From a virus (Duplodnaviria > Heunggongvirae > Uroviricota > Caudoviricetes): DNA of 38,688 bases. A model generated the notes under the pieces. The model saw nothing but the letters and a program-made list of their open reading frames with translations, was not told the origin of the DNA and made no database searches. The stretch is taken from IMG/VR virus record IMGVR_UViG_2703718837_000002; one strand, written 5' to 3'. The translations under genes were made by a program, and so were the position numbers. Shown piece after piece: positions 883 to 15,109 of this stretch (position 1 is the first letter of the stretch; each line of letters begins with the position of its first letter).

Positions 883-1322
883 TTGGCTGGGGTGTATGCG
901 CTCTTGCGTTAGCCTTAGCCGATCGCTATTTGCTAAAACGCAAGGACATCACGCATTTAGAACTTGGTGATGTGGAAATTAAACAGGGCTTCATCCGGGT
1001 GCCGTTCAAATACCGGTCTAAATTCCCGTTTTTGCGCGGCGCAACGGTCAGATATTGGATCCGGGATGTTCAGAAGCCGACGACAGTGATTGAAGGCGAA
1101 CAACGTTGTCTGACGTCGGCTGAACAGGGCGAAAACAGTGAATGGTTGTACATACCCACTGAATATATGGGTAAAGGAGAACGGCTGTGGCATTTCAACG
1201 TCATGGTTACGCATGGTGACTCGTTCATTAACCCGTTGTATCGGATTTTCCCTGTTACTCAGCAAATCCGCAGAAGTTACGTAATAAATCTCGCACAGGA
1301 TGTGTCAGATGACGAAAAATAA
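879..1322 (+). CDS. lydB: LydB-like antiholin (147 aa)
   Basis: Translationally coupled to lydA; size and position match P1 lydB. Confidence 0.7.
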   Translation: MIGWGVCALALALADRYLLKRKDITHLELGDVEIKQGFIRVPFKYRSKFPFLRGATVRYWIRDVQKPTTVIEGEQRCLTSAEQGENSEWLYIPTEYMGKGERLWHFNVMVTHGDSFINPLYRIFPVTQQIRRSYVINLAQDVSDDEK

Positions 1323-1911
1323 GTATGCAACGGTCGATTTTGACCAGGTTAATGAAAAGGGGCTGAAATCCCTTATCGCGGCGATCAATAAAACCGGTGT
1401 TACGGTAATTGAGGTTGACTCCAACAACCGCGCAACAACGAAAGATGGCGTTAAAGTTAAATCCGCAAAGCTGGTTCTTAACGACGGACAAATTCTTGCC
1501 ATACAGGTAAACGATACTGGCGATATATCGTCTGTGAGGCTGAATGGAAAAGCTATTCCTAACGCTCAGTCGCCGGATATCAAGACGCTTGGTACCGTCA
1601 TGGGGCAAGCGGCCCGCAAAAACTCCGCAAAATTCCAGAAATCACTGATCGCCAAAGCGAAGCGTGTTGCCAATCCGGTAGACAAGAAACCGGCAGTAAA
1701 ATCCAACTTTCAGCGCCTGCAAGAAGCAAAACAGCGGAATGCTCAGGTGGTTGCCGCTTATAAGTCCGCGCAGAATTCGGTGTCTTTCAATCAACAGCAG
1801 ATCACAGATTTGCGGGCGAAGTTGGATAAGGAGACGGGCCGACTCAATAACGAAAAGGCACGGAATGGCGAACTCAAACGCCGTCTTAAGCAACTGAAAG
1901 CAGGAAATTAA
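1300..1911 (+). CDS. hdf: Hdf-like protein (homolog of DarA fragment), about 200 aa
   Basis: Shares the KNSAKFQ motif, an LxDGQ-type segment and a following coiled-coil with the middle of the downstream DarA; alternative start at 1309. Confidence 0.6.
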   Translation: MCQMTKNKYATVDFDQVNEKGLKSLIAAINKTGVTVIEVDSNNRATTKDGVKVKSAKLVLNDGQILAIQVNDTGDISSVRLNGKAIPNAQSPDIKTLGTVMGQAARKNSAKFQKSLIAKAKRVANPVDKKPAVKSNFQRLQEAKQRNAQVVAAYKSAQNSVSFNQQQITDLRAKLDKETGRLNNEKARNGELKRRLKQLKAGN

Positions 1912-1912
1912 C

Positions 1913-3832
1913 ATGGAACAGTTCAATATCAATAAAGGGGTGACGATTAAGCCGGGGCTTGACGTGCTTCCCCCGCCGGTGACTGATGATGAATATCGCG
2001 CATTAATGGCTGGTGAGGACCGCTATCTGATGACGGAATCCAACACCCTGGAGGAAATCGAGGCTACGTTCTTCTATGACACGCCGATCCACTGGTGTGC
2101 TACGGATTTACTGGAGGCGATTAGTTCTACTCGTTTGCAGTTACACCGGATCATGCAGGCATTTGTCCGGGCATTGAACCAGAAGCTGAATGGTACCGGA
2201 ATCTCTGCGGGGAGTGATAAAACGGGCGATGTGGCCCAGAGCGGCGCGCGCGCGATCGGCGGCGCTGAAATTGGTCGGGCACGTAACGTTAACGGGCTGC
2301 CGGTCCTGCCAGCCATTATTCCGCTCAGTGATGGTCAGACTATCAGCATTCTGTTTCATAGCCCGACAGCGGAAAACCGGATCACTAATAGCGATACGCT
2401 GGTTGCTTTCCAGTTCTTACTGAATAAAAAAGACGTTACTCACACCGTTGCTCCGATGAGTGGACGTGATATGACGCTGGCGCAGGTCACCATGAAACTT
2501 GCCAACCTTGCAGAGAAAAACTCGGCAAAATTCCAGCGTGCGCAGAAGAAGAAAAAAGCCCTAGTTGATGAAATAACCCAACTACAGGCTGACAGTGACC
2601 AGAAAGAGGATGCCATGAGCGACCTCGCGGATCAGGTGGCAGCGGTAGAAGGCCAGAAGGCAGATCTGGAGCAGAAAATTAACGCGGTTGCTTCGGAAGC
2701 GGATTCTCTTTATCAAGAAAATGAGCGTTTGCAGGCGGAGATTGATCAGCTCAATCGCACTGGTGGGCGCGATACCATTGCTCCAGCGGGGATGACTGGT
2801 GGGCACTCTCGCGCGCTGACGGATCGCCTTGCCAGTATCAAAAATCGTATGCATATGGACGGGGAAACAACGCTCAGTAATGGTGCATCAATGAAGCAAT
2901 TCATTGGGGACGGCGAAGGGTATATCCAGTTAACCGATCCGGATGGCAGCGTGTACATGATCAAGGCTAAATCCATACAGGGTGTGGACATGGCAGATGC
3001 GATCGGCAAGCTGTTTAAAGCCTATAAAGCGGGTAATGTATCGGAATATCTGGTCCTGCCAGAAGAACATAAACCGGAAAACGTCGAACCTGAACCGGCG
3101 GAGGATACCGGTAGCTCTTCGCCTGAACCAGAAGTCTCTGTAGGTGCATATCGATATGCCCTGCAAATGCGTCCGGCGGCCCCTGGCGCGATACCTGAAG
3201 GTAACAAAGCAATTCTGCCGCGCCCTGATGAAGGTGACCCGTATTATGAATATGCACGCTACGGCATTGCTACTTACGATACCCCGCTTTCTGATCAGCA
3301 AATGAGTGAGTACGATCTGAAGTTATTGCCTCGCGAGGATTCTTTCGACTTTCTGGCGAAGACACTTACTAATGGTCCGTTTGGCAAATATGCACAAAAA
3401 GCTCTGGAGCTGGCCACCAGCTCACCAGACGAGTTCCGCGTAATGCTGAAGACTCAGTTTCAAAAAACTTTCCCCAATATTGCGTTTCCGGGTGGCGTTG
3501 GCACCGAGAAAATGGTGCAGAGCATGATCAATGCATTGCAGGCCGAAGTCGGTGAGATTACTCAGCCAGAACCGGCCCCGGCACAGCCTGATGAAACGGT
3601 TAGCGAGGCAGATGCAGAGGCTAATAAAGCCATTGAATATCTCAATAACGTGATGGATATGCAAAGCACTGACATGGCGGAGATCCGTAACGCCCGGGGT
3701 AATGTCCGGGAAGCGATTGCAGCCCTTCAGGCTGCCGGGCGTTTTGAGGAAAACGAAGAGCTGGTTAATGGCGCAGCTCGCCACCTGGCTGATCTGCTGG
3801 TAGCAATCCAGAAAGCGGGGGTAGCGGCATGA
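1913..3832 (+). CDS. darA: DarA, virion-packaged defence-against-restriction protein (639 aa)
   Basis: 639-aa ORF starting 2 nt after the hdf stop; coiled-coil Q/E-rich centre; size and operon context as in P1 darA. Confidence 0.8.
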   Translation: MEQFNINKGVTIKPGLDVLPPPVTDDEYRALMAGEDRYLMTESNTLEEIEATFFYDTPIHWCATDLLEAISSTRLQLHRIMQAFVRALNQKLNGTGISAGSDKTGDVAQSGARAIGGAEIGRARNVNGLPVLPAIIPLSDGQTISILFHSPTAENRITNSDTLVAFQFLLNKKDVTHTVAPMSGRDMTLAQVTMKLANLAEKNSAKFQRAQKKKKALVDEITQLQADSDQKEDAMSDLADQVAAVEGQKADLEQKINAVASEADSLYQENERLQAEIDQLNRTGGRDTIAPAGMTGGHSRALTDRLASIKNRMHMDGETTLSNGASMKQFIGDGEGYIQLTDPDGSVYMIKAKSIQGVDMADAIGKLFKAYKAGNVSEYLVLPEEHKPENVEPEPAEDTGSSSPEPEVSVGAYRYALQMRPAAPGAIPEGNKAILPRPDEGDPYYEYARYGIATYDTPLSDQQMSEYDLKLLPREDSFDFLAKTLTNGPFGKYAQKALELATSSPDEFRVMLKTQFQKTFPNIAFPGGVGTEKMVQSMINALQAEVGEITQPEPAPAQPDETVSEADAEANKAIEYLNNVMDMQSTDMAEIRNARGNVREAIAALQAAGRFEENEELVNGAARHLADLLVAIQKAGVAA

Positions 3833-4206: not shown

Positions 4207-7194
4207 ATGAGCTTAAGCGATCAGGTGGTAATGGCCACCAGCATAGAAACGCTGATCGAGCTGCTAAAAAACCTGCCCGATTTCGGGCGGGTTTCGTATG
4301 TGGTGACAGCGAAGGGTGACGAGGTAAAAACAGCGTTTGATATCGTCGATGCCTCGGCTCTTTTGGTATCCAATACTCTGGACGGGAAAATTAACCCTGA
4401 CTATCCCCAGGAACTTCAGCCGCGCGACCGGACCCGCGCATCCAGCCTTCTTCAGGTTAACCAGATATCCAAGGATTTGCGGCCAGCTCAGCTTACCGAT
4501 TCCGGTTTATCCAGCCATGGCGCGCCGATAATTGGCGAGGACAATGCCGTTGAGTCAGGTAATGGGCGGACCATGGGGATCATTAAAGCCTATCAGGACG
4601 GTAATGCGGATCGGTATCGGGAGTACCTGATTGAACATGCGACCGAATTCGGCATACGGCCTGAAAAGGTTGAATCAATGACGGCTCCGGTACTGGTGCG
4701 CCGCCGGTTAACTAAGGTTGACCGCGTTCAGTTTGCCAAGGACTCAAATATTTCTGATCTTCAGGAAATGGCAGCCAGTGAAAAGGCTTTTGTTGATGCC
4801 GACAGCATAACACCGGCGATGATGGCGTTGTTTAACCCGTCAGAAAGCGGAGATCTGCTTAGCCGCAGTAATGACGCGTTTATTCGCGGATTCATGACGC
4901 AAGTTGGTGCCACACAGGCTGCTGGCCTTGTAACGGAAGATGGGCGACCAACACGGCAACTTGTAGACCGTATACAAAACGCGATCTTTGCCAAGGCATA
5001 TAAGGATGCGCGCCTGGTAAGGATGGTTGCAGAAGAACCTGATCCGGATATGCGTAATGTTCTGACGGCGCTTAATGCGGCGGCCAATGATTTTGTCCAG
5101 ATGCAGGCTTTATCAGGAGAAGCGCACAAGCAGGCTGTGACAACTATCGTTGATGGTATTGAAACAGCGGATAGCCTCGATAAAAAGGCGCTGGCGGCAT
5201 TGAAAGATGCGGTAGACCTGGTAAGGCAATCGAAGGAGTCAGGCCAACATATTACCGATGTTATTGCTCAGGGGGATATGTTCAGCGAAACAGCCCCGGA
5301 AGTGAAAGCTCTCGCGTTGTTCATCGTCGCGAATAACCGTAGCGCGAAGCGTATGGCCACCGCCTTTAAATTGATGGCTCAACGTATCAATGATGAGTTA
5401 CAGCACCAGGGCCAGGCGCTCGGGGATATGTTTGGCGGCGGCGATGTGTCGTTACAGGATATCCTTCGCCAGGTATCTCAGGAACTGGAAAACGAAGGTA
5501 TGCAAGGGATATCTGGCGGTCTTTTCGAGTCAGCTTCCGGCGGTAGTTACAACGGTGTTGCTCCATATACCAGCTTGCTATTACATCGGGCATCCGGCAT
5601 CAAAGACATTATTCATCTGATCAGGCTGCTATCCCGTACAGATCCCCAGGATGAACAGCTTGTTCAAGTGCTTGCGCATTTTGTTCGAATGCCTGTTGCC
5701 GACGTGAAAAAATGGTGCCGATTATTCGGTATCAGCAATTCGTTACTTCGCGGCTTGTTAAATCACGCATCCTCCCTTGGGCGCGATGGCTTTGACGAGA
5801 TAGCGCAGGCTATAAAAAACGGAGATATGCCACCAGCTATTGACTGGTTTTCCATTCGCCCAACCAGGGTGAAAGCATTCCTTAGCGCGGCGCATTCGGC
5901 ATCACCATTGGCAGAAATGGTTCAGAGGTTGTCGCTCATATTCACAGACCATACCGCGTTGGGTGATCTGACTCTGGACGAGATGAAAGAAGCCTCCATT
6001 CAGTGGTCCGATCAACAAAATGAGGTTAACTCTGACTTCTTGCCAGCATTCAGGAAGGCCGTTAGTAAAGCGGATGATGCCCGTGGAATTCTGAAGGCAT
6101 TTAAGGCATTGCAAAGTCGGGTTAATAAACATGTCGGTGATATCGATGGGGTAACGGCGGAAGGCAGGGATATCCTTAAAGAGCACGGCATAACGCCAGA
6201 GTTTATTGATGAGATCAGGACGGATATGCAGCGTGAGGTCGTATCGTCCCTGCAAATTGTAGCCAGAGCGTTGGCGGATGCTAATCCGAAGAGTGCGGCC
6301 ATTGTTAACCGGGTTATTGGTGATATTGAAGCATCGGAGGGCATGGGGGCGCTGAAACTCTTCCTTTCGCGAGCGTTTAATCCTAACGGCAATATTCTCC
6401 CTGGCATTATTGGTGAGGCTAAAAGGTATGTCAGTGAAGAAGAACTTGAGCAGCTTGACCAACTACTTAAGCGATTCTCATATAACCCGCAGACACGCTG
6501 GCAAATGAATCAGCGAAGTATGGGTTCGGTTCACGAGAAAGTGTTATCTGCCATGAACAGTGCGATCGCAAACTCATCCGTATCTGAAGAAAAAGCTCTT
6601 GAGTGGGCCGACTCTTTTATCACGGAAGAAGTGGAAGAAGCCCGCGCTGGACAGAATGGTGGGATAGACCTGCGCAAGGAACTTGCTGATATTTATCGCC
6701 TGACCGGCGGTAAAATTTCGACCTTATCAAAGGTGGTTCACCACCAGGGAAGGGCATATGCAAATCTTAATGGTGTTGTTGCTGTCAATTTGAACGATGA
6801 AAATGCAAGTGCACTGTGGCACGAGCTGGGTCATCATCTTGAGTACAGTAACCCTGGTTTGTTAGAGAAAGCCCGGTCATTCCTGAAGGCCAATGTTGAA
6901 GGGGATAAGCCATCTTTCGTCAATATCGGTGGGCGTGGCAAGCCTGAATGGTGCTTCAGATCTCGATTGAGTAATATTTATATGGCGAAGGTATACCCGC
7001 CAGCCTCAGTAAGTAACACCGGGAAAATTCGGCAGAAATCACCGACTATTTCCAAAACGTCAGCAACGGAAGTATTCTCTATGGCTCTTCAGTTGTATCA
7101 TGACAAAGAGGCCGCTGCCGCATCACTGATGAATGGTGACGGATTGCTGGAACTGTTATTAGGTGTGGCAAAGGAGCTAAATAATGCAGATTAA
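4207..7194 (+). CDS. ddrB: DdrB-like large protein (995 aa); carries a C-terminal HELGH (HExxH) motif
   Basis: Long ORF in the dar operon; HELGH encoded at 6820-6834; assigned by size and position. Confidence 0.6.
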   Translation: MSLSDQVVMATSIETLIELLKNLPDFGRVSYVVTAKGDEVKTAFDIVDASALLVSNTLDGKINPDYPQELQPRDRTRASSLLQVNQISKDLRPAQLTDSGLSSHGAPIIGEDNAVESGNGRTMGIIKAYQDGNADRYREYLIEHATEFGIRPEKVESMTAPVLVRRRLTKVDRVQFAKDSNISDLQEMAASEKAFVDADSITPAMMALFNPSESGDLLSRSNDAFIRGFMTQVGATQAAGLVTEDGRPTRQLVDRIQNAIFAKAYKDARLVRMVAEEPDPDMRNVLTALNAAANDFVQMQALSGEAHKQAVTTIVDGIETADSLDKKALAALKDAVDLVRQSKESGQHITDVIAQGDMFSETAPEVKALALFIVANNRSAKRMATAFKLMAQRINDELQHQGQALGDMFGGGDVSLQDILRQVSQELENEGMQGISGGLFESASGGSYNGVAPYTSLLLHRASGIKDIIHLIRLLSRTDPQDEQLVQVLAHFVRMPVADVKKWCRLFGISNSLLRGLLNHASSLGRDGFDEIAQAIKNGDMPPAIDWFSIRPTRVKAFLSAAHSASPLAEMVQRLSLIFTDHTALGDLTLDEMKEASIQWSDQQNEVNSDFLPAFRKAVSKADDARGILKAFKALQSRVNKHVGDIDGVTAEGRDILKEHGITPEFIDEIRTDMQREVVSSLQIVARALADANPKSAAIVNRVIGDIEASEGMGALKLFLSRAFNPNGNILPGIIGEAKRYVSEEELEQLDQLLKRFSYNPQTRWQMNQRSMGSVHEKVLSAMNSAIANSSVSEEKALEWADSFITEEVEEARAGQNGGIDLRKELADIYRLTGGKISTLSKVVHHQGRAYANLNGVVAVNLNDENASALWHELGHHLEYSNPGLLEKARSFLKANVEGDKPSFVNIGGRGKPEWCFRSRLSNIYMAKVYPPASVSNTGKIRQKSPTISKTSATEVFSMALQLYHDKEAAAASLMNGDGLLELLLGVAKELNNAD

Positions 7195-7496: not shown

Positions 7497-7523
7497 ATCC
7501 CGCCAATCGGCGGGATTTTTTTT
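7497..7523. terminator. Intrinsic terminator between convergent operons
   Basis: Stem ATCCCGCC/GGCGGGAT with 4-nt loop followed by T8 (7516-7523); sits between the + strand dar operon and the minus-strand ssb operon. Confidence 0.7.
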
Positions 7524-8304
7524 AATCGCTTTCCACTTCTTCCGTGGTGTTTTCTTGCAGTTCTGTTAATGCAGCACGACATAGGTTCCGGGCATTGGCT
7601 ATAGCCACACTTTTGACTTCATCCGTCATCGTGCAGGTAATGTACTGATCGAGTTCTTCAGCGCGGATGATGCTTTTGCCAATCAGAAACTGTATTTGCC
7701 ATAGCAGATCGGCATCCATAATCAGAATTTCTGCCGGGCCTTCAGGGCCAGCCGGGAAGGAAACATAAGACTGTTTGCCCAGGCCGACAACTCGACAACT
7801 TGCTTCAAGAATTGCGCGCTTGAGGTCTGACTTTATAACGGAAACAGGTTGATTTTCACCAGTGATTACGCCGTTGACATGGAAAGGCATGTAGCTTGAA
7901 ATACGCTCCACTTTCCACACGCCAGCAAGCGATCCTTCATGCAGCACAATGGGGGTAACCGCGAGTTTCATCTCACCATATAACTGCTGGCAGATAGCTG
8001 GATTGCTGAATACATCTAAAGGCTCACATTCAAACAGCGGCGCAATCTGCATGAGGTCCATCATGGTCATCCCTGGGGTACGAGCAGTAATGAATTTGCG
8101 CATACCAGTATCCATTGCGCTCCAGATTGCTACACCATGCTTTTTGCTCACTTCTTCAGTAAAGCCAAGGTGGCACATGATGGTTTTTTCGATAGCCAGA
8201 GCAGAGATAGAAACCTTTTCGCCAGGTACTCCATCATTATTGATGGTCACTTCGACACTCTGGCCATTACGCAGGCGGTATTGAATTGCTTTAGTATTTT
8301 CCAC
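7522..8304 (-). CDS. Hypothetical protein (260 aa), last gene of the ssb operon
   Basis: Clean ORF, 6-nt gap to the upstream gene; no motif I can assign; acidic C-terminal tail. Confidence 0.55.
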   Translation of the reverse strand: MENTKAIQYRLRNGQSVEVTINNDGVPGEKVSISALAIEKTIMCHLGFTEEVSKKHGVAIWSAMDTGMRKFITARTPGMTMMDLMQIAPLFECEPLDVFSNPAICQQLYGEMKLAVTPIVLHEGSLAGVWKVERISSYMPFHVNGVITGENQPVSVIKSDLKRAILEASCRVVGLGKQSYVSFPAGPEGPAEILIMDADLLWQIQFLIGKSIIRAEELDQYITCTMTDEVKSVAIANARNLCRAALTELQENTTEEVESD

Positions 8305-8310
8305 GTTAAA

Positions 8311-8988
8311 TCACTCCACTACAAACCAGTCACATGCCAGTAAGTCGCCTACAGAAGGAACCCACGGAACAACTACACCTTGTGCATTTTTTAAGGCGAA
8401 ATAAGCACCATACGGAACGAGGTCGCCGGGGAAATATCCCTTAATGGCTTCCATTCGTGCCGGGTACTGTCCTTCAGGAACCAGCCAGCAGAATTGGTTT
8501 TCGCCGTTCCACCCGCGTCGAGCAACTTTCTTGCCATCCTTCAGCCACATCAGCGCGTCAGAAAAGTCGGCTGCTTCAAGGTCGATTTCTTCTTGTAGAG
8601 TAGCGATACCGCCAGCAGAAATAGTTACGTCCCTGGCTGTAATGAATGTCACCCCATTGTGACCTTCAATGCTGAGCGATACCCCATTTTCGAAGAAGTC
8701 GTTAGTCCGACTAAAGCCTTCTTCAAATGTTTTTTCTGGTGAATAGGACAGAGATCCGTCCTCATAAGCGACCAGATATCCGCCAATTTCTGGTCGGTGT
8801 TTTTGCAAAAACATTTTATCAACATGGACTTTTACCCCTTCTGGCTCAACGACTTCGATGTTGCAAAGAAGGACCACATCCATTAGGGCGATAATTTCGA
8901 TATCTTTGATTTTTGAGGCACGAACTGTTTTATGGCTTTTGTATTTTGGAAGTGCCGTCAAAAGCTCTTTCGTTGTCATGTTATTCAT
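8311..8988 (-). CDS. Two-domain protein (225 aa): unknown N-terminal domain plus C-terminal DUF2829/Tad2-like domain
   Basis: C-terminal about 85 aa contains FSDALMWLKDGKKVARRGWNGENQFCWLV ... PWVPSVGDLLACDWFVV, which matches my recollection of the DUF2829 consensus; not verified by HMM. Confidence 0.55.
   Translation of the reverse strand: MNNMTTKELLTALPKYKSHKTVRASKIKDIEIIALMDVVLLCNIEVVEPEGVKVHVDKMFLQKHRPEIGGYLVAYEDGSLSYSPEKTFEEGFSRTNDFFENGVSLSIEGHNGVTFITARDVTISAGGIATLQEEIDLEAADFSDALMWLKDGKKVARRGWNGENQFCWLVPEGQYPARMEAIKGYFPGDLVPYGAYFALKNAQGVVVPWVPSVGDLLACDWFVVE

Positions 8989-12378: not shown

Positions 12379-15109
<2,731 letters not shown>

Follow-up and report, generated by a model that had tools for sequence, protein, structure and literature searches.

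A predicted gluzincin-type metallopeptidase domain at the C-terminus of the P1-type anti-restriction protein DdrB

DdrB is a component of the Dar anti-restriction system of phage P1. Here, we analysed its gene on a stretch of 38,688 nucleotides of tailed-phage DNA (Caudoviricetes; IMG/VR record IMGVR_UViG_2703718837_000002), the whole of which we call the window. The open reading frame (ORF) at 4207..7194 (+) encodes 995 amino acids (aa; 108.7 kDa) and is DdrB, because it shares 98.0-98.4% DNA identity with P1 ddrB and P7 prt over its full length, lies in the gene order of P1 (hdf-darA-ddrA-ddrB-hxr) and carries a ddrB-ParB domain. This N-terminal effector-type module (4312..4707 (+); aa 36-167) is recognized by the Pfam model PF18763 with an E-value of 1.7e-39, and phrog_2299 matches the protein over its full length. 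In Pfam, the upstream protein shows the DarA_N and DarA_C domains, and both darB and pro are also encoded within the window.

About 120 residues from the C-terminus of DdrB lies the motif HELGH (6820..6834 (+); aa 872-876), in which H872 and H876 are predicted zinc ligands and E873 is the predicted general base. The codons at 6817-6837, tgg cac gag ctg ggt cat cat, read W-H-E-L-G-H-H in the frame of the gene, just as a sequence-only reading of this DNA had noticed. The motif belongs to a predicted C-terminal zincin domain of the gluzincin type, which extends over 6529..7191 (+) (aa 775-995).

Is this motif conserved in related proteins? A word-indexed homolog search returned close relatives only, and an exhaustive phmmer search with DdrB aa 740-995 as query was used instead; it gave 390 cluster representatives at E<=1e-3. 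The 154 domain copies that span the motif were aligned with MAFFT, and residues were counted in this alignment. H872, E873, H876, E955 and Y925 are identical in 154/154 copies, and R849 (153/154), E879 (153/154), Y930 (152/154) and E914 (151/154) are near-invariant, followed by S958 with 144/154 (94%). The family is divergent, with identities to DdrB mostly of 22-41% in a subset of 41 sequences, and matches that do not show HExxH are limited to fragments that stop short of the motif or to weak secondary matches. The general base and every putative ligand are retained, which speaks for an active enzyme and against a relic. In the relatives, the domain stands behind ddrB-ParB, MuF or InPase modules, and the matches to it in a viral structure library are mostly phage proteins.

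These counts also settle whether the motif could be a coincidence in a large protein. The sequence-only reading had called a single HExxH only weakly unexpected by chance, and we arrive at the same judgement from composition: 0.026 motifs are expected in DdrB, at least one is present in 2.6% of 20,000 shuffles of the protein, and the 24 long ORFs of the window contain one against 0.29 expected. Yet H872, E873 and H876 are identical in every aligned copy, so the motif is non-random, and this invariance, together with the co-conserved E955, Y925 and Y930 and a confident zincin-like model, rules out a chance origin, to which we assign a practically negligible probability.

The model was calculated with AlphaFold2 for aa 775-995 from the 41-sequence alignment and reached a predicted local distance difference test score (pLDDT) of 91.9 and a predicted template modelling score (pTM) of 0.89. 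It places N-terminal helices first, then beta-strands, the HExxH helix and a later helix that starts directly after E955, at aa 956. Features of a zincin are present in it: HExxH sits on an alpha-helix (6796..6849 (+); aa 864-881), a mixed beta-sheet precedes this active-site helix, and the fold is like that of solved zincins. DSSP assigns the helix to positions 94-107 of the domain model and to residues 864-881 of a full-length model. The near-invariant R849 (6751..6753 (+)) lies in the sheet before the helix. E879 (6841..6843 (+)), which extends the motif to HExxHxxE, follows H876 by three residues on the same helix face, and the conserved acidic residue E914 (6946..6948 (+)) lies in the lower subdomain. 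In the glutamate helix, TEVFSMALQ (7069..7101 (+); aa 955-965), E955 stands at the N-terminal end of helix 956-965 and is predicted to be the third zinc ligand, and S958 completes an ExxS. The sequence E955-V-F-S958 agrees with (E,H)xx(A,F,T,S,G), the motif that PMC7213743 gives for the glutamate helix of gluzincins. A C-terminal zincin fold with a third zinc ligand, for which the earlier reading had suggested a structure prediction, is what the model indicates.

In the inferred active site, the metal would be bound by two residues of the active-site helix, H872 and H876, together with E955 where the glutamate helix begins, with E873 as the predicted base. By analogy with other gluzincins, the transition state is probably stabilized by Y930 or Y925, both of which lie in the segment 6979..6996 (+) with the family consensus PYxGKxY; Y930 is the candidate of this segment. 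In enzymes of the lethal-factor type, the catalytic tyrosine stands about 7 residues before the glutamate ligand. We take Y930, within the family consensus KVYxxGSTE, to be the likely counterpart of this tyrosine. From Y930 to E955 the family consensus has five or six residues, whereas P1 DdrB has 24, owing to a loop insertion of about 20 aa (6997..7059 (+); aa 931-951) that has the lowest pLDDT of the domain. Among the matches listed in the alignment, the long form of the loop is found only in the window sequence and its closest relatives. Judged by model and conservation together, aa 775-995 are likely a genuine gluzincin-type zinc metallopeptidase domain; that the C-terminal domain is a real catalytic zincin appears highly likely, and the retained residues indicate that it is very probably catalytically competent.

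A full-length AlphaFold2 model, built from 8 sequences, was poor (pLDDT 62, pTM 0.38) and served to flag the low-confidence linkers 431-452 and 542-644. The middle of DdrB (aa ~480-770) is weakly conserved among the orthologs, while aa 1-480 and 775-995 are conserved, and aa 542-644 (window 5830-6138) have a pLDDT below 50 in this model. The middle region may be a variable linker or a specificity region.

A zinc-protease domain in DdrB is already known as a prediction and is not new. The P1 RefSeq note on ddrB reads "possible metallopeptidase", the P7 ortholog is annotated "Prt, putative protease", and that of phage JL22 "putative metallopeptidase". Iyer, Burroughs, Anand, de Souza and Aravind (2017; PMC5512222) named P1 DdrB as an example of a C-terminal zincin-like metallopeptidase domain in which the helix with HExxH and a Glu on the conserved helix that follows bind zinc. 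Their metallopeptidase of polyvalent proteins is the same domain in the same protein, with HExxH on the first C-terminal helix, the Glu on the second and a fusion to ddrB-ParB, and our description shows no difference in kind. What we add are the invariance counts over 154 copies, a confident model, the nearest solved folds (Pro-Pro endopeptidase (PPEP), lethal factor (LF) and MtfA), explicit roles proposed for E955 and Y930, and a site at which the prohead protease Pro may cut DdrB. As a computational observation, this is only detail beyond the publications of 2004 and 2017.

The nearest structural neighbours of the domain are found in the group of anthrax lethal factor, PPEP and MtfA and also include botulinum neurotoxin (BoNT) and a type III secretion protease. 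Lethal factor and PPEP (MEROPS M34, 'ATLF-like') and MtfA (M90) share only 12-15% sequence identity with the DdrB domain. No M34 or M90 family profile in Pfam matched DdrB at E<=1 to 10, ATLF was matched by 1/41 family members (E 0.034), and a profile search of the sequences in the Protein Data Bank (PDB) gave no LF, PPEP or MtfA. The proteins also differ in setting: DdrB is a capsid-internal phage protein, whereas those of M34 and M90 are secreted toxins or cytoplasmic regulators, and DdrB differs from them in its loop-extended spacing between Y930 and E955. In lethal factor the zinc ligands are His686, His690 and Glu735 and the base is Glu687, a site common to MtfA (PMC5668564).

The sequence-only reading had drawn a parallel to ArdC-type anti-restriction proteins, which holds in part. 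ArdC of plasmid R388 likewise carries a gluzincin HExxH+E domain on a nucleic-acid-related N-terminal module, and both proteins enter the cell together with the invading DNA and act against type I restriction (PMC7213743). In ArdC the residues are H201, H205 and E229, the nearest folds are Spartan and IrrE, and the N-terminal module is the DNA-binding ArdC-N domain (PMC7213743). DdrB, in contrast, has ddrB-ParB only and no single-stranded-DNA-binding ArdC-N domain, and its nearest fold is not Spartan or IrrE; membership in the ArdC type was rejected. According to the models, the DdrB domain resembles the lethal-factor/PPEP/MtfA group more than it does the Spartan-like domain of ArdC. As a structural and evolutionary statement, the earlier interpretation is supported.

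What would such a domain do in a phage head? It belongs to the peptidases of phage 'polyvalent proteins', which are fused to cargo modules (ddrB-ParB, MuF, InPase) and carried in phage heads. We tentatively propose self-processing of DdrB as its main role, at a confidence that falls short of an even chance. The domain would cleave DdrB, in cis or from one copy to another, either in the head or after ejection, and would thereby release the N-terminal part with ParB from the peptidase module. PMC5512222 cites a processing of DdrB to a 76-kDa form and proposes autoproteolysis by the domain before packaging. Residues 1-700 of DdrB amount to 76.3 kDa, which is consistent with the reported form. As cleavage sites for an N-terminal fragment of about 76 kDa we considered the [LI]xE sites at E659 (71.9 kDa), E669 (73.0 kDa) and E737 (80.2 kDa); they lie in a poorly conserved region and were set aside.

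Several observations weigh against a catalytic domain or against this task. Scans against Pfam, NCBIfam and PHROG found no significant peptidase family on DdrB or on the 41 family members, and the sub-threshold matches in these scans (Peptidase_M91, Reprolysin, Zincin_1, ATLF) were driven by HExxH. Foldseek found no match to the domain in the PDB, and phmmer and profile searches of PDB sequences gave nothing significant, the best peptidase-like hits being a botulinum-like toxin (E 0.31) and ADAM8 (E 2). Some of the closest folds, Certhrax and the N-terminal domain of edema factor, are non-catalytic zincin relics, and MtfA works largely through partner binding. We found no biochemical or genetic test of the DdrB motif in the searchable literature. 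Against self-processing in particular, the major capsid protein (MCP) and DarA are considered to be processed by Pro, the prohead protease that P1 has for this task, and DdrB itself carries a conserved Pro-like site at E441. Liquid chromatography-tandem mass spectrometry of P1 virions (Gonzales 2022) covers 59.5% of DdrB, which would need about 85% coverage of a 700-residue fragment, above that of any other listed P1 protein; as such coverage would be exceptionally high, this suggests that more of DdrB is packaged than the 700-residue fragment.

The site at E441 leads to another explanation, in which Pro cuts DdrB between E441 and S442 and a 60.8-kDa C-terminal fragment with the zincin domain is packaged, ejected with the DNA and cuts a host protein, namely a component of restriction or of another defence, or co-injected Dar proteins. 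The motif L-F-E-S-A (5521..5535 (+); aa 439-443, with E441 at 5527-5529), conserved as L/M-F-E-S/A-A/S, lies within aa 437-446 (GGLFE↓SASGG, with ↓ for the presumed cut), which resemble the MCP site AMLE↓SVAA. Pro is held to cut MCP between E120 and S121, a site mapped by Edman sequencing, and to remove the N-terminus of DarA. Across 7 orthologs that share 39-46% identity, F440 and E441 do not vary, although their flanks are variable and gap-rich; the loop with E441 has a pLDDT below 50 in the full-length model, and P1-like variants read LFE↓SV. Moreover, DarA (1913-3832 (+)) contains LLE↓A at E68, next to residue 70, the first that is ordered in the published cryo-electron microscopy structure. 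The virion coverage of 59.5% exceeds what either side of residue 441 alone could give (44% and 56% of the protein), and the nearest folds of the domain belong to effector proteases that are secreted or injected (LF, PPEP, BoNT, type III secretion protease). The window gene pro (12379..13398 (-)) encodes a protein 99% identical to P1 Pro; it is a protease from the same window as DdrB, it acts on head-internal proteins including DarA, and it has T4 gp21 and HK97 gp4 as relatives in HHpred, but its fold and catalytic class are unrelated to those of the DdrB domain and it has no HExxH, so that it matters here only as a rival agent for the processing of DdrB. Against this stand the fragments themselves, as a cut at E441 gives 47.9 + 60.8 kDa, whereas Iyer et al. 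(PMC5512222) cite 76 kDa. The motif is also short: hydrophobic-hydrophobic-E-[S/A] occurs 10 times in the 9,929 residues of the window ORFs, and there is none in the head proteins DarB, Hdf and DdrA. A host target has no known candidate. Finally, ArdC E229A is normal in conjugation (PMC7213743), and therefore a conserved active site may be dispensable in a given assay. Hence, since the motif is short and its fragments do not match 76 kDa, E441 is a lead only, and on this sequence resemblance Pro, rather than the HExxH domain, may process DdrB. We regard the Pro-dependent route as doubtful, and an injected effector protease that cuts a host protein as slightly more doubtful still. Unlikely is the full combination of a cut by Pro at E441, packaging and injection of a ~61-kDa LF/PPEP-like zinc protease and cleavage of a host defence protein with no self-processing; if true, the DdrB fragment would be a capsid-delivered anti-defence protease.

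Two further roles can be set beside self-processing. The domain could mature other Dar cargo, for instance so that DarB and Ulx are correctly built into the head: the entry for DdrB in Gonzales et al. reads 'Aids DarB addition to capsid', and incorporation of Dar proteins is ordered, with DdrB before DarB and Ulx. We consider this quite unlikely, given that processing of DarB or Ulx is not reported in the literature examined, that the processing of DarA is attributed to Pro, and that relatives carry the same peptidase domain on MuF or InPase cargo, in architectures unlike that of P1 DdrB. Improbable to a still greater degree is a domain that binds metal and acts mainly as a non-catalytic, protein-binding or structural module, as MtfA does in titrating Mlc or as in the LF-N-like domains of Certhrax and edema factor. 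Zincin relics usually lose HExxH, whereas E873 and every putative ligand of the DdrB family are invariant in all of the divergent sequences aligned, which argues for selection on catalysis.

Some further observations concern Pro-like sites and the surroundings of ddrB. Four of the 10 hydrophobic-hydrophobic-E-[S/A] sites in the window lie in Pro, one is that of DarA E68, one is that of DdrB E441, and one lies 10 residues from the C-terminus of the portal protein (prt, 13391-15100 (-)); the four sites in Pro are in keeping with its proposed action. In a metagenomic DdrB relative of 851 aa (P0024), compared with window 12379-13428 (-), the first ~150 residues are homologous to P1 Pro, with 37% identity to its N-terminal half (E 8e-21), and are joined via IFE↓SAPEE to a ddrB-ParB and a zincin domain. 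This Pro-like domain, linked to the ParB domain through IFE↓SA, would also suit a processing by Pro; the protein is a prohead-protease/DdrB fusion or, possibly, two adjacent genes called as one. The gene hdf (1300-1911 (+)) encodes a DarA_N domain (Pfam E 5.9e-21), i.e. the N-terminal module common to Hdf and DarA. Inside ddrB, an antisense ORF at 4761-5129 (-) occupies the place of the P1 gene annotated iddB, which was non-essential in a published CRISPR interference screen. The ORF at 8311-8988 (-) encodes 225 aa with a C-terminal Tad2-like domain (Thoeris anti-defence 2, DUF2829; Pfam E 1.6e-22) and lies downstream of hxr in a variable spot that is occupied by isaB and IS1 in P1 and by a porin gene in P7 and JL22. 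Salmonella phage SJ46 shows the same Tad2-like arrangement with 98.6% identity. Adjoining this gene, an ORF at 7522-8304 (-) encodes 260 aa with no Pfam match; in SJ46 and RCS47, the corresponding region bears the annotation isaA or insertion-associated protein.

In summary, the domain of DdrB is of low interest as a discovery and of moderate interest as an experimental target. The Dar system is the classic case of anti-restriction proteins that are injected from the phage head. A proven protease activity of DdrB with a known substrate would give Dar a concrete mechanism and would test the idea that polyvalent proteins use their peptidase domains to free their own cargo. With 390 cluster representatives the domain family is large, yet it is matched by no curated model of Pfam or NCBIfam and none of its members has a solved structure; characterising a single member would therefore give an annotation to many phage proteins.

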